Assembly: GCA_965224705.1 (NCBI GenBank)
Contig: OZ245056.1
Location: 1-64,000, forward strand
Direction of reading: 5' to 3'
DNA from: Spirochaetaceae bacterium
GTDB taxonomy: Bacteria > Spirochaetota > Spirochaetia > DSM-2461
DNA: 64,000 bases
Positions 15,642 through 35,675 of the stretch are shown piece by piece. Below the pieces are notes generated by a model, which searched no databases, had not been told where the DNA came from, and worked only from the letters and a program-made list of their open reading frames with translations. The translations under genes and the position numbers were made by a program. The first letter of the stretch is position 1; every line of letters begins with the position of its first letter.

Positions 15642-15713
15642 CGGGATGTAGCGCAGGGGGAGCGCGCCTCGTTCGGGACGAGGAGGCCGTGGGTTCAAAT
15701 CCCACCATCCCGA
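15642..15713 (+). tRNA. tRNA-Pro (anticodon CGG); CCA not encoded
   Basis: Acceptor CGGGATG/CATCCCG; D-stem GCGC/GCGC; anticodon arm CCTCG-TTCGGGA-CGAGG; T-arm GTGGG-TTCAAAT-CCCAC. Confidence 0.95.
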
Positions 15714-25111: not shown

Positions 25112-25327
25112 CTATGCACTCTCAGTCTCAAGTGTATGGGGAACTCTGCTTACAAGCTCCTGTATTTCATCACTGATCCGGCGGTAGAAGTTGAATTTCC
25201 CTTCCCCACCTACAAAGTCTTTGGAGGAAATTCGGCATTGTTTCTTATACTGGATGCCGTCCGCCATCTGACTCCGACAGGAACTGCCCGTACAGGGAAA
25301 CTGTATGCTGAGCCGCCGATTATTCAC
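25112..25327 (-). pseudogene. arsC: Internally deleted arsenate reductase (ArsC, LMW-PTP family) remnant
   Basis: IQFPCTGSSCRSQMADG resembles the ArsC P-loop (LCTGNSCRSQMAEG) and FYRRISDEI the C-terminal helix, but only 71 aa long. Confidence 0.7.
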
Positions 25328-26364
25328 TGGAACAGTACCAGGTATTCCCCATAGCCTTCAGCTTCCATTTTATCTTTTGGAACGAATCTCATGGATGCCG
25401 AATTGATGCAATAGCGTAATCCGCCTTCTTCCCGGGGGCCATCATTAAAAACATGGCCTAAGTGAGAATCGGCATTTTTGCTTCGAACCTCGGTCCTCAC
25501 CGAAAAAAGTTTTCTATCTGTCTTACTGACGAGGAAGTTAATATCAATAGGCCGGGTGAATGATGGCCACCCGGTCCCTGAGTCATATTTATCCGTCGAA
25601 GAAAACAAGGGCTCACCTGAGATGATATCGACATAAATCCCATCCTCATGGTTATCCCAGTATTCACCGGTAAAAGCCCGTTCCGTACCATCTTCCTGAG
25701 TCACCCTGTACTGAAGATCAGTTAGCTGAGATCTCAGCTCCCTGTCGGTTGGTTTTTTATTCATTTTCCATCTCTCATTCTCCCAGACAGATGTCAGATA
25801 TCCTTTTCTATTCGAACCTTCGTAATAGGCATAGTATCGTTCAGGATTCTTCCTGTAGAAATCCTGATGGTATTCTTCGGCCTCATAAAATGGCGATAAC
25901 GGCAGTATCTCCGTTACAATTTCTTTGTCAAACCTTCCAGTTGCAGACAGCCTTTGTCGGGATTCTTCTGCCAGAAGCTTCTCAGCCTGACTGGAGAAAA
26001 ACACAGCTGTCTGATACTGTTGGCCCCTATCGTAAAACTGTCCATACCGGTCCGTTGGATCAATATTTCGCCAAAAAACATCCAGTAATTCCTTATAGGA
26101 AATTATCTCATCGTCATAACTGACTCTTACTGCTTCGTAATGCCCTGTACCGCCATTAACCACCTGTTCATAGGTTGGATCTTTTACCTTCCCTCCTGTG
26201 TAACCGCTCACAACAGATTTAACTCCCCGCAGAGATTCAAAAGGAGGTTCAAGGCACCAGAAGCACCCACCAGCAAAAACTGCTTCCTGCACCTCTGCTG
26301 ACAGAACTTGAATTGAGCATAATCCAGATACAGCAGCAAATAACAATGCCGAATACTTTTTCAT
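25324..26364 (-). CDS. msrAB: Exported bifunctional methionine sulfoxide reductase MsrA/MsrB
   Basis: Signal peptide from ATG 26364 with [42 protein letters not shown]. Confidence 0.95.
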
Positions 26365-26378
26365 ATAACATCCTCCCA

Positions 26379-26558
26379 GGAGTCTGTCGGACTTACGCCT
26401 CACGGCTCGAAGTCTTAAAGTTCGACAGACTCCCAGGAGCCTGTCGGACCTGCGCCTCACGGCTCGATTTTTGCCCTTCCCTCCAGAAGCAAGCCTCCTG
26501 TCTGATTCTTCCGAGCCGCCTTCGTTTGTTTTTGTCACCTTAAAGCCCGACAGACTCC
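26379..26558 (+). repeat. Tandem pair of family-1 MITE units (55 bp + 123 bp)
   Basis: Units 26379-26433 and 26436-26558, each bounded by GGAG(T/C)CTGTCGGAC...CGACAGACTCC and joined by CA. Confidence 0.88.
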
Positions 26559-26697
26559 TGAAATGTTTCGGACTTCAAGCTGACTGAATACACTCATGTA
26601 CACAATCATTCTGACGAAAAACTCCATTTATTGCAAACCCTCAACGGACGCGTTTCCCTGAGAACTGTCCGGGAGAATCTAACAGAGACTGCTTATT

Positions 26698-26925
26698 TCA
26701 GGCCTTTTTCACCACTATCCTCCACCCGTCTGGTATCCGGGTAACAGAGAAGACCTCATGGCCTTCCAGTTCCATGGATTTCGGCACATTGGCAGCACTC
26801 TCACCATTATCCACAATGAGGGCGAGTACTTGTCCTTTCTCCATTGTTTCAATTTCCAGTTTACTCTTCACAAATGTATAGGGACAAACATCCCCCGACA
26901 GGTTTATTTCACGATCATATTCCAT
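26698..26925 (-). CDS. TusA/YeeD-family sulfur carrier
   Basis: 75 aa; NLSGDVCPY motif, LIVD, NVPKS. Confidence 0.9.
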   Translation of the reverse strand: MEYDREINLSGDVCPYTFVKSKLEIETMEKGQVLALIVDNGESAANVPKSMELEGHEVFSVTRIPDGWRIVVKKA

Positions 26926-26937
26926 CTGAAGCCTGCT

Positions 26938-27849
26938 TCACCGCTCTACAGGGTATTTTTCATCATTGCTCCATTCTATCCAACTGCCGTCGTACAGAGC
27001 AACATTCTCAAAACCAGCTAATTTCAATGCCAGCCAGGTATGGGCACCCCGAACACCAGTCTGGCAGTGTGTTACAATGGTTTTATCAGGGGATGCTCCC
27101 CGAAAAGTATAGAATTCGGAAAGCTCCTCACTGCCCAGAAACTCGGGAATTGATCCGTCCGTATTATTCAAAACCCATTCAATTGACAGAGCACCGGGAA
27201 TGTGTCCTCCACGATTTGCTCGAACATCACTTCCCTCATACTCGCCACTGCTCCGGGTGTCTATAACAACATAGCCGGGAGTCTCAAGATTCTGAAGAAT
27301 TGTGTCACCGTCAACCAGAAGCTGTTCCTGGACATAGGGGATGAATGTACCCCTTACAGGTTTTGAAGGAATCTCAGTACTCAATTCATTCCCGGAATCC
27401 ACCCAGGCTGCATAGCCGCCATTCAGAACAGCCCAGTTCTCATGACCAAGATAGGCCAGGGTCCAGGCAACACGAGAGGCCCAGAGTCCGTTTCCTCCAT
27501 CATAGAGAATCACGGCGGTATCATTTGAAATGCCCAGTTCCTCCAGCCATTCAACCGTTGGTTCAACACCGGGAAACATACCCGGAATGCCGTTCACCGT
27601 CTGGTAATACTCCTTCTGGTCAGCATATAAAGCTCCCTTGATATGACCTGTATTGTATACCTCAATCTTACGGCCAATATCAAGAAATATCAGATTACCG
27701 GCATCCAGGTTTTCAGATACATAACTGACCTCAACCAGTCTGGATGGTAGAACAAGACTGTTCTTCACAGCATCCTGTGATGTACCCATAGCTGCTATCA
27801 ATACACCGACGGCAACAAATAAAGCAGCCGTTATCAACACACGTTTCAT
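26938..27849 (-). CDS. Tandem-domain rhodanese (sulfurtransferase) with N-terminal signal peptide
   Basis: GHIKGA, VLNGG, DTRS, GHIPGA, active loop HCQTGVR, YDGSWIEW; MKR plus hydrophobic N-terminus. Confidence 0.92.
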   Translation of the reverse strand: MKRVLITAALFVAVGVLIAAMGTSQDAVKNSLVLPSRLVEVSYVSENLDAGNLIFLDIGRKIEVYNTGHIKGALYADQKEYYQTVNGIPGMFPGVEPTVEWLEELGISNDTAVILYDGGNGLWASRVAWTLAYLGHENWAVLNGGYAAWVDSGNELSTEIPSKPVRGTFIPYVQEQLLVDGDTILQNLETPGYVVIDTRSSGEYEGSDVRANRGGHIPGALSIEWVLNNTDGSIPEFLGSEELSEFYTFRGASPDKTIVTHCQTGVRGAHTWLALKLAGFENVALYDGSWIEWSNDEKYPVER

Positions 27850-27850
27850 T

Positions 27851-28906
27851 TTATACTCCTTCAGGCATGACAGCCGAATTCATTTTTTCCTGCAATGATT
27901 GCTTCAAGGTTCTCTGCCGATTCCAGATCAAAGCCGTGGCACTCCAATTTCCAATCATTGTAAATACAGTGGCCACGGAACTTGACAGCGCCAGGGCCGA
28001 CAAACCGGTTATCCCATGACCGATGTTGCATCCTCCGGCCAGAGCAGCACCGGTCCCCATCACCAGACCTCCAGAAAACTGGATCAAAGCACGCCGGGGA
28101 TCAGGCAGACGCAGCCGTAAATCCCCGCCTTTCCATGACGCCAGTAATGCTCCTGGTGGAAGAGCGGCCAGCATCCAGGCCGACCAGTTGATCCCCCCCG
28201 CATCTCCAGTCACCAGCCAGGTTCCCCATGCCACAACAGGCTGTATAAAGGAGAGTCCATAATCACGTCCCTCCAACGATGAGAACACCCAGGCAGCCAG
28301 AGCAAGTACACCCACACATACTCCAGTTAAAGGCCACTTCCAACCCGTCGAAAATCGGTTTCCGGGGCTCCGTACAAGGATGTATGCTCCAATTGCCATT
28401 ATTACAGCAACAGCAATCCACCGGCCTGCCCATGGATTTCCCGGCAGGACATGGCCCAGGGAGGGAATGTCACCGGCTATGCTCCATTCAAACTTATTCA
28501 GATATCCACGCAATGGGGAGAGAGGCCCGGTACTCACCATTACTGCCCCGATTGAAAATCCCCCCAAAGCCAGGAAGGAACCCAGCATGCCTTTGGAAGT
28601 ACGATAGCAGGTTCCACTGACACACCCCCCGGCCCATACCATCCCTGCTCCAAACAATAGACCGCCGAGGATAAGCGTCCAGGGTGTAAAGGGGGCCTTC
28701 ATAGGATAGAGAATTCCCATGGAGTCCAGAGCTGTAACGGCTGGAATATTAATGAGAAGAACGAGGATCCATGCTCTCAGTATCGATCTATCTTCCCTGA
28801 AAGCAATACTGCGAAACGCTGTATTCATACAAAATCCACCACGCTGAAGAGTCCATCCCAGCAAGAATCCAGTAATAAGACCACTGCCAACACTCACTAT
28901 CTGCAT
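27851..28906 (-). CDS. YeeE/YedE (TsuA-type) thiosulfate transporter
   Basis: QRGGFC, AGGCVSG, AGGCNIGH conserved Cys motifs; about 9 TM segments. Confidence 0.92.
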   Translation of the reverse strand: MQIVSVGSGLITGFLLGWTLQRGGFCMNTAFRSIAFREDRSILRAWILVLLINIPAVTALDSMGILYPMKAPFTPWTLILGGLLFGAGMVWAGGCVSGTCYRTSKGMLGSFLALGGFSIGAVMVSTGPLSPLRGYLNKFEWSIAGDIPSLGHVLPGNPWAGRWIAVAVIMAIGAYILVRSPGNRFSTGWKWPLTGVCVGVLALAAWVFSSLEGRDYGLSFIQPVVAWGTWLVTGDAGGINWSAWMLAALPPGALLASWKGGDLRLRLPDPRRALIQFSGGLVMGTGAALAGGCNIGHGITGLSALALSSSVATVFTMIGNWSATALIWNRQRTLKQSLQEKMNSAVMPEGV

Positions 28907-28915
28907 CCAATCCTC

Positions 28916-29911
28916 CTAAAAACAGGCGAAGCCCTGACCGGACTTCAATTCAACAGCTTCGAAAGCAACCACTGATCCTTCGCCTGGAAGTTTTCCTGAC
29001 AGTGCAACTCGGTCAGAGTTCGACTCCAGCCGGTAGAGATTTTCTGCCGTGGCCAGCCAGACTCCGCCTGACCCATCAGGGACTGCTCCTCTGCCTCTTT
29101 CCGGCAGACTGTATTGGTTGCTCACCCTGTGCCGCCGCACATCCAGTTTCACCAGATTTCTCCCATCCTGTGCAAGGGCCCAGGCACTCCGGCCATCGGC
29201 ACTGAAACGGGGGATCTCAGCTTTTTTGATACTGATGGACTTCACAATCCGGGCCTTTGATTCATCGACAATTGTCCAACCCCTGCTGTCCGTTCCCCAG
29301 AGATAGCGACCACCGGGGGCCAGGCTCCAGAAAAGGATTCCAGAGGTTTTCGGTACATTTTTAAGCAAACTGCCATCTGATGTTAGAAAAAATTCCAGAT
29401 TTCCCATTCCCCCCCGGTACAGACGAGTCCCGCGACTGCTGACAGCCGGCACCACCTCATCGTAACGTTCATCCACAGAAACACCGGACAGGTTGAATGA
29501 CACGGGATCAGAGATTTCCCCTGCCTTGTGTGAAAAGGAGGTTATCCTGTTTGATGTGGAGCCGACGGCATACAAAACATCTCCCATTGGAGAGAAGACC
29601 AGTCCTGAAAACGGGTAATTCAGTGATAAATCCACCTCCTTCATCTGGTCAGGATTCTCGTAATCCACGGCATAGCCCCGGCCTGTAGAAGAATTCAGCA
29701 CAAAGACATACTTCCCCCCGGGAGTACCCAGAAGAAAATTGCTGTTCCGTGCATTTCTCTGACCAATTTCCCGGCCGTCAACCGCATTCAGTATGTGGAG
29801 GAACTCTCCGCGCAGAAGAAACAGGCGGCTTTCGGCAAAGACTCCATGAATGGAAAACAGAATGCAGAACACGAAAAACCAGACGACCCGGCCGACAGCT
29901 GAAGATTTCAT
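28916..29911 (-). CDS. Exported YVTN/YncE-like beta-propeller ending in GQGFACF
   Basis: Signal peptide; repeated blade motifs TPGGKYVFV, SPMGDVLYA, SSRGTRLY, APGGRYLW, SADGRSAW. Confidence 0.75.
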   Translation of the reverse strand: MKSSAVGRVVWFFVFCILFSIHGVFAESRLFLLRGEFLHILNAVDGREIGQRNARNSNFLLGTPGGKYVFVLNSSTGRGYAVDYENPDQMKEVDLSLNYPFSGLVFSPMGDVLYAVGSTSNRITSFSHKAGEISDPVSFNLSGVSVDERYDEVVPAVSSRGTRLYRGGMGNLEFFLTSDGSLLKNVPKTSGILFWSLAPGGRYLWGTDSRGWTIVDESKARIVKSISIKKAEIPRFSADGRSAWALAQDGRNLVKLDVRRHRVSNQYSLPERGRGAVPDGSGGVWLATAENLYRLESNSDRVALSGKLPGEGSVVAFEAVELKSGQGFACF

Positions 29912-30324
29912 TTTTTGATCACCGTTGGGTATGGTGAAACGACCTTGTCCCGATTGACTGTGAATCCCTTTAATTCGTCGTCGGGTACCGAGTAGATAAC
30001 ATGCACCATCTCGGTATCATTGGCCAGGCGAATATCTTCCAGAGACATGCGAGCCGGTGATTCCGGGTGACTGTGATACACTGCAACAAGGCTGAGACCG
30101 TCATTGCGGGCTGTTTTCATCGCTGTGAATTGTTCCTCTGGGTCCATTGTAAAATGTTCAGGAGATGCATCGGTATTGGTCAGAGGAAGAATCTTCACAG
30201 CCTTCCTGCTGCCATCATCCCCGATTTCACCTGCAAGATATCCACATGCTTCATTGGGCATCTCATTCCGTGCCTGCTGGCCTATGGCCTTGAGAATTTC
30301 TGGCGGTACATTGAGGTTTCTCAT
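29908..30324 (-). CDS. JAMM/MPN+ metalloprotease (Mec/HcyD-like)
   Basis: PNEACG and YHSHP...MSLED JAMM motif. Confidence 0.92.
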   Translation of the reverse strand: MRNLNVPPEILKAIGQQARNEMPNEACGYLAGEIGDDGSRKAVKILPLTNTDASPEHFTMDPEEQFTAMKTARNDGLSLVAVYHSHPESPARMSLEDIRLANDTEMVHVIYSVPDDELKGFTVNRDKVVSPYPTVIKK

Positions 30325-31148
30325 TGCCTTACTTCCCCTTCGGGAACTTTCAGTGTACAGACCTCCTGTTGATATTCCACCAGTTCATCGGGGAGTAAAC
30401 CGCCTTGAGTCATGGGCAGTGCCCACTGAGTTCTTTTAACCGGGACTGTCCGAAAATCCATGGTGAAAGCGTCAAAAGTAAGGATGCGGTCAGTGAGCAG
30501 TTCTCCTGTACCAATGAGGTACTTCAGAGCTTCGGCAGCCTGAATTGTTCCAAGAATGCCGGCAATCGCTCCCAGGACACCGGCCTCCGAGCAGGATGGA
30601 ACAGCATCAGGCGGCGGCGGCTGACGGTACACACAGCGGTAGGATGCAGAGCCGGGAACATGGGTGAGTGTTTGACCCCTGAAGCGAAGAATTCCGCCCT
30701 GGTTAAATGCCTTTCCTTCGAGAATACAGGCATCATTCACCAGGAACTTGGAAGGAAAATTATCTGTCCCCTCCAGTATGAAGTCGTAATCCCGAATCAA
30801 ATCCCGGACATTGGAGGCATCTATACGGCAGGGATAAGTTTTCACGCTGACATCAGGATTCAGGGATTCCAATGTTGCTCTGGCTGAGTCCACCTTTCGT
30901 CTGCCAACATCAGTTGTATGATGGAGAATTTGCCGCTGAAGATTGGACAGTTCAACGACATCGGCATCAACAATCCCAATAGTCCCGATGCCGGCAGCTG
31001 CCAGATAGGTTGCTATGGGAGAGCCCAGTCCTCCTGCTCCAATAACCAGGACCCGGCTGTCAAGGAGTTTTTTCTGTCCCACGCCTCCCACATCCTTGAG
31101 AAGTATGTGTCTGCTGTATCGTTCAATTTGTTCATTTGTAAAACTCAT
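30321..31148 (-). CDS. ThiF/MoeB-family adenylyltransferase (E1-like, HcyF-like)
   Basis: RYSRH, GAGGLG, SNLQRQ, DNF, PSCSEAGVLG. Confidence 0.93.
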   Translation of the reverse strand: MSFTNEQIERYSRHILLKDVGGVGQKKLLDSRVLVIGAGGLGSPIATYLAAAGIGTIGIVDADVVELSNLQRQILHHTTDVGRRKVDSARATLESLNPDVSVKTYPCRIDASNVRDLIRDYDFILEGTDNFPSKFLVNDACILEGKAFNQGGILRFRGQTLTHVPGSASYRCVYRQPPPPDAVPSCSEAGVLGAIAGILGTIQAAEALKYLIGTGELLTDRILTFDAFTMDFRTVPVKRTQWALPMTQGGLLPDELVEYQQEVCTLKVPEGEVRQ

Positions 31149-31174
31149 AGTTTTGTCTCCTGGAATTGATAGTT

Positions 31175-32410
31175 CTACTCAAGAGCCTGTTTGAAATCAT
31201 CAATTAGATCGGAAACGGCCTCCAAACCAACAGAAACTCGAATAAGATCATCCGATACTCCAGCCTCTTCCTGAGCCGCCTTTGTCTGTTCCCGGTGAAT
31301 TGTAGATTCGAGATGCAGGGCCAGTGTCCGGGAGTCTCCAAGATTGGTTTGAACTCTGACAAGCCTCAGCCGTCTGAGAGCATTGAAGGCTCTTTCGCGG
31401 CTTCCTGCCCGAAATGTCAACAGACCGCCCCAGAGTCCTCCAAAATACTTTGACGCACGCTCATGCCAGGGGGATGAAGTCAATCCAATCTGGGAGACTT
31501 CAGGAATATCCGGTCGATCTTCCAGATACCTTGCCAGGGCCAGGGCATTTGAGCTGTGACGATTCATGCGGAGTTCAAGGGTATCTGCTCCCAACAGGGC
31601 AATGTAGGCATCGAAGGGAGAAAGGGCTCCGCCAAGATTCTGCCGGGAAACTTTTTTCATATAGACCAGGAAGGCCATATCAGAGCCTGTCAGCTTTACC
31701 ATATTTCTGATGGCAGTACCGGGGAATTTCTTCCACTCATAAACTCCTGTATCGGTAACACAACCCGATAAAACAGTTCCGTTTCCTGTGAGAAATTTTG
31801 TTCCAGACTGAACCGTCAGGGATACTCCATGATTTCCGGCCTCCAGCATGACAGGAGTCACCAGAGTGGTGTCCAGTACCAGAGGAAGCTGGGCTTCTCT
31901 GGCCAGGGAAGCCCAGGCATCAATATCAGGGACATCCATTCGAGGATTCCCCAACGCTTCAAGAAACAGAAATCTAGTTTTTGATGACAGAGCTTCTTTG
32001 ACACCGGAAAAATCGTCAGGATCCACATAGTGAACAGCAACTCCAGAACGTACGACCGTGTTGTCGAAACAGGATCGAGTTCCTCCGAAAAGGCTTGTGG
32101 AGGCAATGATTTCCTCCCCTGATTCTACCAGAGCTGTAAAAAGTGCAGTGATTCCGGCCATACCGGTTGAATAGACAGCCGATCCCCTGGCCCCATCTTC
32201 CATGGCCGTCCATCGACGTTCCAGAGTCGTGATGGTCGGATTGGAAAGCCGACCGTAAACATGGCCAGCCGTCCGACCGGCAAAAATATCTTCCAATTCG
32301 TCCGGACCCTCAGAGGAAAATGCCGCAGACGCCATAATGGGCATAACGGATGCACCATTCCAATCCTTTGAGTTTAATCCGGCATGCAATGCACGTGTAG
32401 CGAATTCCAT
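31175..32410 (-). CDS. PLP-dependent O-acetylhomoserine sulfhydrylase-like enzyme (MetY family)
   Basis: YGRLSNPT, TGMAGI, LFGGT, QSGTKF (PLP Lys), NLGDSRTL, IRVSVGLE. Confidence 0.88.
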   Translation of the reverse strand: MEFATRALHAGLNSKDWNGASVMPIMASAAFSSEGPDELEDIFAGRTAGHVYGRLSNPTITTLERRWTAMEDGARGSAVYSTGMAGITALFTALVESGEEIIASTSLFGGTRSCFDNTVVRSGVAVHYVDPDDFSGVKEALSSKTRFLFLEALGNPRMDVPDIDAWASLAREAQLPLVLDTTLVTPVMLEAGNHGVSLTVQSGTKFLTGNGTVLSGCVTDTGVYEWKKFPGTAIRNMVKLTGSDMAFLVYMKKVSRQNLGGALSPFDAYIALLGADTLELRMNRHSSNALALARYLEDRPDIPEVSQIGLTSSPWHERASKYFGGLWGGLLTFRAGSRERAFNALRRLRLVRVQTNLGDSRTLALHLESTIHREQTKAAQEEAGVSDDLIRVSVGLEAVSDLIDDFKQALE

Positions 32411-32414
32411 GAAC

Positions 32415-32639
32415 TCATTCCATCCTCAAACCGTTCCCTCCACCCATAAAGTAGAGAAATTCCAAAACATCGCCTTCAGTTACATGGAGTTTGTCAAAGT
32501 CCGCCCTTTCCAGAATCTCTCCATTGTGCTGGACAGAAACCATATCGGGATCTGGAACCTCTTTCAGGGCCAGGAGTTCTTTGATGGTGAGTTTATCCAT
32601 GGCCAGTGACTCTCTGCTTCCATTGATTTCTATGGTCAT
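32415..32639 (-). CDS. ThiS-like sulfur carrier with C-terminal extension after the GG motif (HcyS-like)
   Basis: MTIEING, VQHNGEIL, EGDVLEFLYFMGGG then NGLRME; GGAGG SD before ATG 32639. Confidence 0.9.
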   Translation of the reverse strand: MTIEINGSRESLAMDKLTIKELLALKEVPDPDMVSVQHNGEILERADFDKLHVTEGDVLEFLYFMGGGNGLRME

Positions 32640-32677
32640 TGCATCCTCCATTACTCTCTTGTACTGCTTTTTCCTAA

Positions 32678-32709
32678 ACCATACTTAATAAACTGAATTA
32701 GTCAAGTAT
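32678..32709 (-). promoter_or_regulatory. Sulfur-operon promoter overlapped by an IscR/Rrf2-type operator
   Basis: TTGACT, 16 bp, TATGGT; ATACTTGACTAATTCAGTTTATTAA (32685-32709) matches 21/25 positions of the IscR type-1 consensus as I recall it. Confidence 0.6.
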
Positions 32710-32754
32710 TAAATCATTGAAGAAAGGATTTTTTTATAATGAGTCTGGAATCCA

Positions 32755-33041
32755 GGAGTCGGTCGAACTTTAAGGTGACAAAAACAAACGAGGCGGCTCG
32801 GAAGAAGCAAGCAGGAGGCCTGCTTCTGGAGGGAAGGGCAAAAACTGATCCGTGAGGCGTAAGTCCGACAGACTCCCAGGAGTCTGTCGGACTTTGAGAC
32901 TTCGAGGCGATTTTTGATGTTTTTTTTCCGATACAAGGCGGCAAAAGCGGAGCGTAGCTGGGCTACGTGAGCATTTTGGCAACGCCGTAGCGGGAAAAAA
33001 GGGCAAAAATCGAGCCGTGAGGCGTAAGTCCGACAGACTCC
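32755..33041 (-). repeat. Tandem pair of family-1 MITE units (122 bp + 163 bp)
   Basis: 32755-32876 is the inverse of 26436-26558; 32879-33041 is the inverse of 1-158; perfect 16-bp palindromic junction. Confidence 0.9.
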
Positions 33042-33158
33042 CAGGCTTATTATTGCGATATAAGATTTACTTCAGACTGGTTCCAGAGAAGCAGAAGTAT
33101 AAGGACTGCCGCATGCGGAATGGAGGCCTTTTTTACATCTTCTAATGCCGAGGACTAT

Positions 33159-35675
33159 TTAACTCCTGGCGGCGGCTGTTTCATTCGCAGTTTTCTTCGT
33201 TCTGCGTCTGTTTTTTCGGCGAAAGCGTATTTTCCCGGACTGGAGAAGCTCTACGGCAACTTTGTCCCTACTCTCAAAACGTCCCTGCAGAATAGCCATT
33301 GAGAGAGGATCCTCTATTTCCTTTTGAATAACCCGCCAGAGAGATCTGGCACCGTAAACCGCATCAAACCCCCTGTCCATCAGGAATTCTTTGACGGCTC
33401 TGTCAACTTCAACACAGATGTTTAGATCTTTCAATCTTCCGGATACTTCTGTCAGCATTAAATCCATAATCTGTATGACATGATTGTACTCAAGGCTGTG
33501 AAAAACAACGGTTTCATCAACTCGATTCAGGAATTCCGGTCTGAAAATACGTTTGAGTTCCATCATTGCTGAAGATTTTATCTCCGAGTGGGATATCGCT
33601 CCATCCCTGGTACTGAATCCAAAACTCCCACGGCTGAATTCCCTGGCACCAGCATTAGAGGTCATAATCAAAACAGCATTCTTGAATGACACCTTATGAC
33701 CAAAGCTGTCCTGCAATTCCCCTTCATCCAGAACCTGCAGGAGAATATTAAATATATCGGGGTGAGCTTTTTCAATTTCATCAAGAAGAATAACCGAATA
33801 GGGGCGCTTTCGTATTTTTTCTGTCAGCAATCCCCCTTCTTCATAGCCGACAAAACCCGGAGGAGCTCCAATCAGACGAGATAGATTATGTTTTTCCATG
33901 AAATCCGTCATATCAATCCGAATCAAAGAATCTGAATTTCCAAAGAGATATTCGGCGAGACTCTTTGCAAGCAGGCTCTTGCCCACACCGGTCGGGCCAA
34001 GGAAGATAAATGAACCAAGGGGACGGGATGGAGAATTCAGGCCTGTCCGGGACCTGCGTATCAATGATGAAACAGAAGCGATTGCCTCATCCTGGCCGAT
34101 AACTGTTTTATGGAGTTCATCTTCAATCTGGAGAAGTTTATCCGATTCATTTTTCATTATGCGAATCATGGGAATGCCAGTATTCTCTGAGACAAGTTCC
34201 TGAATGTCTTCTTTTGTAACTTGATTCTTTACCCTGTCAAGAGAACTCTCCCATTCGCGTTTAACAGCATCAATTCTCGACCTCATTTCCTGAACTTTGT
34301 CACGCATTCTTGCGGCACTTTCATAATCCTGTGCATCCACACATGAAACTTTTCTATCGCTGAGTTGTCGGCACTTCTCTTCCAGTTCTTTGATTTCCTC
34401 AGGAAAAATCTTGTTCTGAAGACTTTTTACAGCTCCAGCTTCATCGATTAGATCTATGGCTTTGTCAGGAAGATTTCTGTCCGCAACATAGCGGTCAGCG
34501 AGATCGGCCGCAGCCTGCAAAGCTTCATCGTTATAGCTTACCTTGTGAAAATCACCATACTCACGACTCAGGCCCTTCAATATCTGACAGGTCTCACTGA
34601 CTGTTGGCTCATTGATTATGACAGGCTGAAACCGCCGTTCCAGAGCACTGTCTTTCTCAATGTATTTCACATACTCATCAAATGTTGTGGCACCGATGCA
34701 CTGGAGTTCTCCCCGGCTCAAAGCTGGTTTCAACATATTGGAAGCATCAAGTGCTCCTTCCGCAGCACCAGCACCGATAATTGTGTGAAGTTCATCGATA
34801 AAAAGTATGATGTTACTCGCACTGCTGATTTCTTTAACAACTTTCTTAATTCGGCTTTCAAATGCACCCCTGTACTTTGTTCCGGCAATCAATGCAGCCA
34901 GATCGAGACTGATAATGCTCTTTTCAAGGAAGACATCCGGAACATTGCCCTTGACGATTTCCATGGCAAAGCCTTCCACTACAGCGGTCTTGCCCACTCC
35001 GGGATCACCAATTAGAACTGGATTGTTCTTTTTACGGCGAGCCAGTATGCGTATCAGTCTGTTGATTTCTCTCTCCCGGCCAATAGCCACACTCAATAAG
35101 CCTTTGCGGGCCATGTCCGTAAGATCCCTTGAGTAGTCGCCCAGAATTTCAAACTTCGGTTTATTCATTTTGGATATGTTGATTGTTGAAAAACCTGATT
35201 TCTCCACTGATATGGATATTTTCCTGGTCTGATTCCGTTCAAAATAGACTTCTCTCACGACTCTCCTCAGGTCATCAATTGAGATATTCTTTGATTCAAA
35301 GAATGAACACATGGGACTTCCCTTCTCAAGGACTGCAGCAAGTAATAAATGCTCCGTACCAATGTACTCATGACTGAGCCTGGCAGCCTCGTTCGCAGAG
35401 ACATTGAGAAGTGTTTCCACCCTGCTTGAAGGAGAAATCTTATTAACCTTGTATGGATTTTTAAGATGTGGAATGCCAATCATGAGATGTGGAGTAACAG
35501 CTTCAATGCCAATATTCAATCTGTCAAGGCATTTGACAGCTGCACTGTTTTTATCATTGAGCATGGCAAGAATAACATGCTCATTCTGGATCTGGTCTGA
35601 ATGAGATCTCCTTGCTTCTTCCATGGCAAAATCAGCCAGAATGCGTTTAGCTCGTGGGGTTAAATCCTTGATCAT
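33159..35675 (-). CDS. clpC: ATP-dependent Clp protease ATP-binding subunit ClpC
   Basis: Clp-N repeats; [17 protein letters not shown]-like [26 protein letters not shown]. Confidence 0.95.

Follow-up and report, generated by a model that had tools for sequence, protein, structure and literature searches.

In Wolinella succinogenes, HcyS, HcyF, HcyD and MetY constitute a protein-thiocarboxylate pathway to homocysteine, in which the carrier is loaded with sulfide that stems from sulfite reductase. This thiocarboxylate route is known only with sulfate or sulfite reduction as the source of its sulfur. The operon described here has the same core on a different front end. It lies on the minus strand at 26698-32651 of the window, i.e., the first 64,000 nucleotides (nt) of contig OZ245056.1 from a member of the Spirochaetaceae (assembly GCA_965224705.1), and it joins the genes of a ThiS-like sulfur carrier, a MetY-like pyridoxal-phosphate (PLP) enzyme (MetY2), an E1 adenylyltransferase and a JAMM metalloprotease (together module A) to those of a β-propeller, a YeeE-family channel, a rhodanese and a TusA-family sulfurtransferase (module B). 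Gene neighbourhoods of class 4e encode a ThiS/MoaD protein, a JAB protein, an E1 without rhodanese domain and an O-acetylhomoserine sulfhydrylase; in the survey that defined this class, they are always accompanied by SirA/TusA and joined to genes for sulfate/sulfite ATP-binding cassette transport, ATP sulfurylase, adenosine phosphosulfate kinase, phosphoadenosine phosphosulfate (PAPS) reductase and sulfite reductase (Iyer, Burroughs and Aravind 2006, PMC1779556). As of 2017, neither KEGG nor MetaCyc contained the thiocarboxylate route to homocysteine (PMC5764234).

Two described systems are close to the front end. YeeD of Spirochaeta thermophila (StYeeD) decomposes thiosulfate and becomes a persulfide, and its release of sulfide has been shown (PMC11073785). 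For SoxT1A, a YeeE-like protein of Hyphomicrobium denitrificans, import of sulfane sulfur has been proposed from periplasmic proteins with a C-terminal cysteine to cytoplasmic rhodanese/TusA proteins (PMC11582611). The initial annotation knew of no characterisation of the full combination. In agreement with this, no description of a thiocarboxylate core combined with a YeeE module was found in the full-text literature, subscription-only literature, notably TusA reviews, being outside reach, and the searchable supplements of PMC1779556 and PMC11582611 do not mention the partner families.

The eight open reading frames (ORFs) are all co-directional, with successive intergenic distances of 4, 26, -4, -4, 9, 1 and 12 nt from the carrier gene to the TusA gene. 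Seven of the eight proteins pass the Pfam gathering scores (PF02597, PF01053, PF00899, PF14464, PF04143, PF00581 and PF01206). Several score below NCBIfam equivalog cut-offs and are therefore divergent members of their families. The operon structure and the gene identities of the initial annotation held, as all ORFs are in place and Pfam and fold agree, and none of the eight genes is a sulfate-activation or sulfite-reductase gene, as it had also stated. In what follows, G000 is the source genome (3.0 Mb), other G numbers are genomes of relatives and L numbers are loci or contigs.

The first gene of module A encodes the ThiS/HcyS-like carrier (32415-32651, minus strand; 78-amino-acid (aa) ORF; PF02597 E 1.4e-08; TIGR01683 46.3 bits, cut-off 37.45). 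Its true start is probably the fifth codon at 32639, which has GGAGGA ahead, would give a protein of 74 aa and fits the N-termini of the orthologues. The carrier ends in FLYFMGGG followed by a six-residue tail, NGLRME. Of 11 homologues found, the L004 copy was left out, and all 10 that were compared have FLYFMGGG with a tail of 0-7 variable residues. A variable tail after the Gly-Gly is the pattern that would be expected where a JAMM protease must expose the Gly-Gly end. Such a protease, of the JAMM/HcyD type, is encoded at 29908-30324 (minus strand; 138 aa; PF14464 E 1.2e-22) by a gene that overlaps both of its neighbours by 4 nt. The protein contains EACGYL and HSHPESPARMSLED, which we take to be the H-x-H-x7-S-x2-D motif of JAMM proteases (readable here as HSH-x7-S-x2-D). 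The E1 of the ThiF/MoeB/HcyF type (30321-31148, minus strand; 275 aa; PF00899 E 9e-78) matches PF00899 over residues 11-238 and has no rhodanese domain (PF00581) by Pfam scan; it stays under every NCBIfam equivalog cut-off.

MetY2 is encoded at 31175-32410 (minus strand; 411 aa; PF01053 E 1e-97). With 353.6 bits against TIGR01326 it falls under the cut-off of 495, and it is 35% identical to the canonical MetY of the genome. Its best NCBIfam model is that of the bifunctional O-acetylhomoserine/O-acetylserine (OAH/OAS) sulfhydrylase subfamily, with every equivalog cut-off missed, and its closest solved relatives are O-acetylhomoserine sulfhydrylases (8sf5, 279 bits; 3ri6, 266 bits). MetY2 is predicted to be a thiocarboxylate-dependent O-acylhomoserine sulfhydrylase. 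In a maximum-likelihood tree of 30 rows, a non-random sample with an arbitrary root, all 14 MetYs linked to ThiS/ThiF genes are on one side of a branch (support 87/87). Within these, the spirochaete set of seven linked MetYs has a support of 99/94, and the MetY of G029, which is linked to a sulfite reductase (Sir), is placed between the rows linked to YeeE. Like class 4e and the Wolinella system, the operon thus brings together a carrier with residues beyond the Gly-Gly, a rhodanese-less E1, a JAMM protein, a PLP enzyme of the OAH-sulfhydrylase type and a TusA. The difference is that the sulfate/sulfite genes are not in the operon and are replaced by those of the propeller, YeeE and the rhodanese. 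Judged from its sequences, module A is of the known thiocarboxylate-homocysteine kind by every feature tested except the sulfur-supply genes.

In module B, the YeeE/TsuA-family membrane channel (27851-28906, minus strand; 351 aa; PF04143 E 1e-66) covers positions 1-309 of the 310 of PF04143 and is the only PF04143 gene of the genome. The protein scores below the TsuA models (NF052577, 192.8 versus 400; NF041049, 137.3 versus 645), aligns to the S. thermophila YeeE structures 8j4c and 6leo at E 1e-39, and has three cysteines, C26, C95 and C293, that are invariant across nine orthologues. The TusA-family protein (26698-26925, minus strand; 75 aa; PF01206 E 2.8e-19) has its Cys14 within CPYTFVKSK. 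It reaches 22.7 bits against the YeeD model NF041048 (cut-off 147.5) and carries CPYT rather than CPxP. When aligned to TusAs of the sulfite-reductase type of thiocarboxylate cluster it scores 56-64 bits, versus 27.8 bits to StYeeD. The module shares with YeeE/YeeD (TsuA/TsuB) of E. coli and S. thermophila a three-cysteine channel and a small TusA-family partner with a cysteine in the same operon. It differs in that both proteins are far below the TsuA/TsuB cut-offs, that the TusA motif is CPYT, that a rhodanese gene separates the YeeE and TusA genes and a propeller gene comes ahead, and that the downstream user is a thiocarboxylate module instead of CysM plus sulfite reductase. The designation as a YeeE-YeeD-like module is therefore retained for the channel with its three cysteines and dropped for the TusA, which is no YeeD equivalog.

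The gene between those of YeeE and TusA (26938-27849, minus strand; 303 aa; PF00581 in two stretches) encodes a tandem-domain rhodanese with the catalytic loop CQTGVRG in its C-terminal (second) domain. At 122.6 bits against NF008557 (cut-off 250), it is not an SseA equivalog. All eight primary copies start with K/R and a hydrophobic stretch, and the protein is predicted to be exported, with this segment as signal or anchor. The six full-length primary copies all retain CQTGVRG[AS]HT. Periplasmic rhodaneses that handle sulfur from thiosulfate or polysulfide are known from W. succinogenes (Sud) and E. coli (PspE and YnjE). The operon protein resembles these as a presumably exported rhodanese-fold protein with a catalytic cysteine, but it is of the tandem 3-mercaptopyruvate/thiosulfate sulfurtransferase-like type and is encoded directly after YeeE. 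Some variation surrounds this gene in other loci. In G005 (L003:1647-2495), the exported rhodanese and TusA are separated by a second rhodanese copy, with the loop CQAGVRAAHT, which lacks the N-terminal hydrophobic segment and is presumably cytoplasmic. In one lineage (L036:1742-2116 and L035:4009-4329), the gene after YeeE consists of a signal sequence and part of the first rhodanese domain, and TusA starts 4 nt ahead of the stop codon of this remnant. A fusion of YeeE and rhodanese in L003 and L032 was considered and ruled out, as stop codons are present.

The remaining protein of module B (28916-29911, minus strand; 331 aa) has no Pfam or NCBIfam match at E ≤ 0.01. Its AlphaFold model, built on an alignment of 11 relatives, is all-beta with 27 strands (predicted local distance difference test (pLDDT) 86.4; predicted template-modelling score 0.83), with a signal-like helix at residues 8-20 and a pLDDT below 50 for the last residues, 327-331. 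Foldseek returned seven-bladed propellers of the YVTN, lactonase, AztD and N2O-reductase kinds (1l0q_A at E 4e-14; 6nau_A with a query template-modelling score, TMq, of 0.72), and the neighbours in the ESM Atlas are generic propeller clusters only (YncE, cytochrome d1, lactonase) at 0.93. The earlier designation as an exported β-propeller agrees with this predicted seven-bladed fold behind an N-terminal signal-like helix. The C-terminus reads GQGFACF, with Cys330 on a tail that is disordered in the model. Among the residues invariant in 15 propeller sequences are T63, P64, G65 and G66, F106 and S107, H128, R160, T162, R163 and Y165, D216 and E217, and A329, C330 and F331.

A word-indexed search gave only 10 propeller clusters, which is an underestimate, as a profile search gave more. 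The latter was run against 1.84 billion representatives, of which the best 150 hits were considered, and 158 proteins were collected altogether. An [FY]ACF ending with at most one extra residue is present in 60 of these 158, and in 58 of the 60 its cysteine is the only one after residue 40. Of the proteins without this ending, four are short matches that appear truncated or chimeric (P0035, P0043, P0050 and P0077), and the remaining 94 are long multi-repeat proteins. Three distant relatives carry a precomputed PF13360, PF10282 or PF21783. Taken from their sequences, the single-domain [FY]ACF propellers form an unnamed family of at least 60 clusters. One of the short matches, P0035 (325 aa), joins the first ~230 residues of an [FY]ACF-type propeller directly to the catalytic C-terminal domain of a rhodanese (CQTGVRGSHT), and may have arisen by natural fusion, by deletion or as a chimera of adjacent genes in the assembly.

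Swinging-arm sulfur carriers are known in SoxY, with a C-terminal GGCGG, and in DsrC/TusE, with a penultimate cysteine. The propeller shares with SoxY and DsrC a lone cysteine on a flexible C-terminal arm in a sulfur-trafficking context, but its fold, seven-bladed and of the YVTN/YncE type, is unrelated, so that the likeness is one of possible working and not of family. Tetrathionate hydrolase, which acts on polythionates, is a β-propeller enzyme as well (PMC11323534), and the operon propeller could therefore instead be catalytic.

The occurrence of the operon was followed in 40 relatives, including 13 other genomes of the same genus, and by scanning 401 genomes of the phylum with a profile. 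Three of the 13 (G004, G005 and G011) have MetY2 at an identity above 60%, and the canonical MetY (34-38% identity) is widespread among the relatives. All eight genes stand in the same order in G011, on metagenome contig L032 and, with one extra rhodanese, in G005; the G004 contig stops after JAMM. In three operon-free genomes of the genus (G001, G009 and G012), no E1 homologue was found at E ≤ 1e-10, and YeeE was not found in G001 either. Genomes of the genus carry or lack the operon as a block. Full-length propeller matches occur in three of the 401 genomes of the phylum (G000, G166 and G249). G166, which belongs to another family, has the order Rrf2-PALP-ThiS-MetY2-ThiF-propeller-YeeE-rhodanese-TusA-DsrE2-TusA-JAMM. 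Metagenome contigs of 57-71% GC carry (MetY2-ThiF-)JAMM-propeller-YeeE(-rhodanese-TusA), with propellers that are 26-32% identical. Ten lineages result when L035 and L036 (99.95% identical over 2064 nt) are counted once. In all ten, YeeE directly follows the propeller, and thiocarboxylate genes stand ahead of the propeller in eight of the nine with readable upstream sequence. This neighbourhood search bears out that the two halves are co-conserved.

The core is also found with other partners. In G029, which belongs to the same class, ThiS-MetY2-ThiF is followed by DsrE2, TusA, JAMM, a Sir::TusA fusion, a PAPS-reductase-family gene and CysNC. A MetY2 pattern scan of genome contigs yielded 24 loci, none of which exceeds 38% identity or belongs to the clade of the operon itself; seven of the 24 (L009-L015) are Clostridial thiocarboxylate clusters. 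MetY, TusA, ThiS, ThiF and JAMM are present in six of the seven (L009-L012, L014 and L015), and MetY, JAMM and ThiF on the 3.3-kb contig L013. L011:10001-16110, from a Lachnospira hominis record and the locus annotated in full, encodes MetY, a small sulfite reductase, TusA, thioredoxin, ThiS, ThiF and JAMM, and further a pyridine-nucleotide disulfide oxidoreductase and a PALP enzyme. As the same core is joined to sulfite reductase elsewhere, the YeeE half looks like an alternative sulfur-supply module. The six more complete Clostridial loci (L009-L012, L014 and L015) have in common a small ferredoxin-type sulfite reductase, TusA, a thioredoxin and a thioredoxin-reductase-like flavoprotein; the latter two are candidate reductants of an acyl-persulfide intermediate.

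The source genome, a single contig, is 95.2% complete, and absences from it therefore count as 'not found' and not as proof. By blastp, the only ThiS, E1, JAMM, TusA, YeeE and propeller homologues of the genome are those of the operon. A sulfite reductase of PF01077 (NIR_SIR) was not found in it by a search that was positive in 11 of 14 control genomes; nor was one found in G005, G011, G249 and G001, and NIR_SIR is present in G166 and G029. Whether cysDN, cysH and sir exist outside the operon, a question raised with the initial annotation, has a divided answer: CysD-CysNC and a CysH-type reductase are encoded elsewhere in the genome, and only the sulfite reductase was not found. The genome further contains MetA, MetH, a canonical MetY (2600294-2601598; TIGR01326 587 bits, cut-off 495) and, adjoining the latter, CysK (428, cut-off 351). 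MetX, MetE and MoaE were not found in it, and no true ThiG either, the best being a partial match of 28.6 bits. With neither ThiG nor MoaE found, the carrier is therefore not serving thiamin or molybdenum cofactor synthesis. The CysD-CysNC genes stand in a cluster of their own (G000:C1:2384262-2389824, L007), directly after a 3796-aa ORF; behind them come the genes of cysteate synthase (TIGR03844, 459 bits) and of a serine-palmitoyltransferase/BioF-like acyltransferase. This cluster resembles a sulfonolipid (capnine-type) branch, in which sulfite would be consumed, and it may explain sulfate activation without a sulfite reductase.

Modules A and B are likely to be functionally coupled. That module B supplies the sulfur of module A is suggested by the gene overlaps, the conservation of the junction, the distribution as a block, the rhodanese-less E1 and the single TusA. 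A role of TusA as the sulfur source of E1 is supported by the observation that E1s of class 4e always neighbour SirA/TusA and that the only TusA of the genome is in module B. The RNA evidence is in line with coupling. At least part of the stretch is contained in eleven public runs. Four of these are RNA libraries from one study, labelled mollusc metagenome, and the RNA contigs were compared over 25200-34200. In run X3, a 4195-nt contig (28467-32661, with 11 differences) spans the stretch from within YeeE to a point 10 nt ahead of the annotated start codon (ATG) of the carrier gene. Co-transcription of the halves thus has an RNA contig that bridges them in its favour, and a contig of several genes is no proof of a single transcript.

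On balance, we favour a pathway of periplasmic sulfane-sulfur mobilisation followed by YeeE, a TusA persulfide, a carrier thiocarboxylate and homocysteine, in which the substrate, each sulfur-transfer step, the place where thiosulfate is cleaved and the product are inferred. Outside the cytoplasm, the exported rhodanese and the tail cysteine of the propeller would mobilise the sulfane sulfur of thiosulfate, polysulfide or S0, and any sulfite would stay outside the cell. The three-cysteine YeeE channel would then pass the sulfur to cytoplasmic TusA, giving a TusA persulfide. Meanwhile, JAMM would trim the six-residue tail of the carrier and expose the Gly-Gly, and E1 would adenylate the trimmed carrier. 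In place of the missing rhodanese domain of E1, the TusA persulfide would attack the adenylate, and reduction would yield carrier-COSH. MetY2 would join carrier-COSH to O-acylhomoserine supplied by the MetA of the genome, after which JAMM would release homocysteine and MetH would methylate it. Periplasmic release of sulfane sulfur is favoured because the rhodanese and the single-cysteine propeller are, by prediction, exported and are conserved, because no sulfite reductase was found that could clear cytoplasmic sulfite, and because a similar model has been proposed for SoxT1A (PMC11582611). As no NIR_SIR was found in G000, G005, G011 and G249, there is a reason to keep sulfite outside the cell. 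The operon and the SoxT1A/SoxT1B systems share the proposed logic of a periplasmic presenter with a tail cysteine, a YeeE-like channel and cytoplasmic rhodanese/TusA. The latter serve dissimilatory oxidation and signalling with SoxYZ and DsbA-/SoxS-type thioredoxin partners, and have no thiocarboxylate module.

A stricter version of this pathway, possible but doubtful, is that the sulfur never becomes free sulfide or cytoplasmic sulfite: the rhodanese would strip it, the propeller arm would deliver it into the mouth of YeeE and the TusA persulfide would load the carrier directly. If this relay is true, propeller-YeeE-rhodanese-TusA would be a portable sulfane-sulfur import cassette that replaces sulfite reductase ahead of thiocarboxylate pathways, or that functions alone, as in G249.

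Several findings weigh against the favoured pathway. YeeE proteins are documented thiosulfate importers, and the distances between the channel cysteines make a Cys-to-Cys relay doubtful (PMC11582611). In G249, propeller-YeeE-rhodanese-TusA stands by itself and the whole genome has no close E1, so that module B is able to work without module A. G166 keeps a second TusA together with DsrE2 beside JAMM, which suggests that the TusA of module B may not be the partner of E1. In the L035/L036 lineage, the rhodanese is reduced to a 124-aa remnant that lacks the catalytic domain. The genome contains CysK and the canonical MetY, which use sulfide; sulfide released by TusA could therefore serve the ordinary routes instead, and the suggestion of the initial annotation that free sulfide is avoided is, for this reason, a conjecture. 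The branch that unites the linked MetYs has a support of just 87/87 in a non-random sample of 30 rows. The RNA evidence consists of assembled contigs of a single study, in which carry-over of DNA is possible and a single transcript is unproven. Finally, neither promoter-like sites (4 found, 5.9 expected in shuffles) nor terminator-like sites (6 found, 6.8 expected) exceed chance.

Given coupling, it is rather probable that sulfane sulfur crosses the membrane and not intact thiosulfate. The reverse, i.e., that YeeE imports intact thiosulfate, that cytoplasmic TusA cleaves it to a persulfide plus sulfite and that the persulfide loads the carrier, is unlikely, yet a serious rival. The exported rhodanese and the propeller would then be accessories for binding or presenting the substrate, for processing polysulfide or polythionate, or for handling sulfite. 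The match of YeeE to S. thermophila YeeE at E 1e-39 with its three cysteines kept, the loss of the catalytic rhodanese domain in one lineage and the residues R160, R163 and H128, invariant in the propeller and able in principle to bind an anion, are all compatible with such ordinary transport. So are the decomposition of thiosulfate by StYeeD with formation of a persulfide (PMC11073785) and the channel-cysteine distances, which speak against a direct relay (PMC11582611). However, no NIR_SIR was found that could dispose of the resulting cytoplasmic sulfite, TusA with its CPYT motif falls well short of the YeeD cut-off, and YeeE misses both TsuA cut-offs. Moreover, nearly all lineages keep both the catalytic rhodanese and the propeller with its one tail cysteine, each apparently exported, which is hard to explain by binding alone.

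A second alternative abandons the coupling and regards the modules as two independent neighbouring units, the uptake module feeding CysK and the canonical MetY and the thiocarboxylate module being loaded by another donor, such as free sulfide or a cysteine desulfurase. Each module does exist apart from the other: G249 has module B alone, and G029 and Clostridia have module A without YeeE. CysK and the canonical MetY are at hand, and the Wolinella carrier is loaded with sulfide from sulfite reductase. Nevertheless, the overlapping start and stop codons, a junction found in eight of nine lineages across a wide divergence, the gain and loss as a block within the genus and an RNA-library contig that crosses the junction make independence quite unlikely. 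In addition, module A lacks a TusA of its own, whereas its neighbourhood class always has one according to the survey of Iyer et al. (PMC1779556).

The product is a separate matter. With the same relay, MetY2 could make cysteine from O-acetyl- or O-phosphoserine, or another thiol metabolite. It misses every NCBIfam equivalog cut-off and has a bifunctional OAH/OAS subfamily as best model, related clusters add a CysK/CysM-like PALP enzyme, and CysO/CysM of Mycobacterium tuberculosis makes cysteine by this route. Against these stand its nearest solved relatives, which are O-acetylhomoserine sulfhydrylases, its grouping with the MetYs of Wolinella-type neighbourhoods and the presence of MetA and MetH, so that a product other than homocysteine appears very unlikely. 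Roles outside sulfur assimilation, namely selenium handling (YedE/YedF-like) or ubiquitin-like conjugation (SAMP/UbaA/desampylase-like), have only sub-threshold matches to point to (YedF, 42 versus 79; YedE/FdhT, 79.7 versus 350; ExtH, 53.8 versus 200; UbaA, 307.7 versus 450; desampylase, 69.9 versus 130) and are highly improbable, as sulfur models score higher, MetY2 is in the operon and the core of the relatives is linked to Sir, CysDN, an Rrf2 regulator and CysK-like genes; the selenium reading was rejected, since no selD above the cut-off was found in the source genome (26 bits versus 125).

With the favoured pathway of periplasmic sulfane-sulfur release, the operon offers a concrete downstream acceptor for the sulfur of a YeeE channel, together with two candidate periplasmic partners. 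It bears on the question whether the cargo of the YeeE family is thiosulfate or sulfane sulfur, which is raised in PMC11582611, and it defines an unnamed family, of at least 60 clusters, of putatively exported propellers with a single tail cysteine. As its core is placed on a different front end, genome-based predictions of methionine/cysteine prototrophy and of sulfur sources would miss the operon.

The control signals around the operon are few. A promoter-like TTGACT-16 nt-TATGGT was found by pattern scan upstream of the carrier gene (32678-32705, minus strand); it is weak alone. The end coordinate 32709 of the initial annotation coincides with this site. RNA contigs end at 32661 (X3) and 32656 (X6), 10-25 nt past the -10 box, in keeping with transcription starting at this site. 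Run X3 also contains contigs at 26669-27860 (TusA and rhodanese) and 27990-28485, and the depths of its contigs are 19, 8.3 and 5.4, versus 0-4.8 over the neighbouring MsrAB and Clp ATPase genes. X6, X8 and X11 cover the operon in part and X3 leaves 27861-27989 uncovered, gaps that carry no weight. Since the reads come from mollusc-metagenome RNA libraries, the operon is probably expressed in a host-associated setting with reduced sulfur species available. No significant hairpin was found at the 3′ end of the operon (z 0.21). A terminator-like hairpin with a T-run lies at 28927-28947 (minus strand), within the last propeller codons and just before YeeE; the X3 RNA contig crosses it. A riboswitch or leader RNA was sought and rejected: Rfam at gathering threshold gave only the tRNA at 15642, and an E-value scan of 32500-33300 gave sub-threshold chance matches within a repeat only.

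This repeat is interspersed in the genome. The repeat search located copies in the 3′ flank of the operon (26360-26570) and, inverted with respect to these, in the 5′ flank (32753-33041). It measures ~100-130 nt, has the palindromic core GGAGTCTGTCGGACTT, is also present at 143-158 and has 73 matches across the genome, often as several tandem or inverted intergenic copies that give spurious ORFs. The RNA-contig depth over the repeat is 262-702, summed over many genomic copies, and loose contig ends run into other loci. A mobile cassette bounded by inverted repeats was considered, as the arms 26403-26532 and 32780-32909 are 85% complementary over 130 nt; it was rejected because the repeat is interspersed genome-wide with its 73 matches. 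Just downstream of the operon, an MsrA-MsrB fusion is encoded at 25324-26538 (minus strand), whose 404-aa ORF extends ~58 codons into the repeat. Its real start is probably internal, at a signal-peptide-like sequence, which would make the protein an exported methionine sulfoxide reductase.

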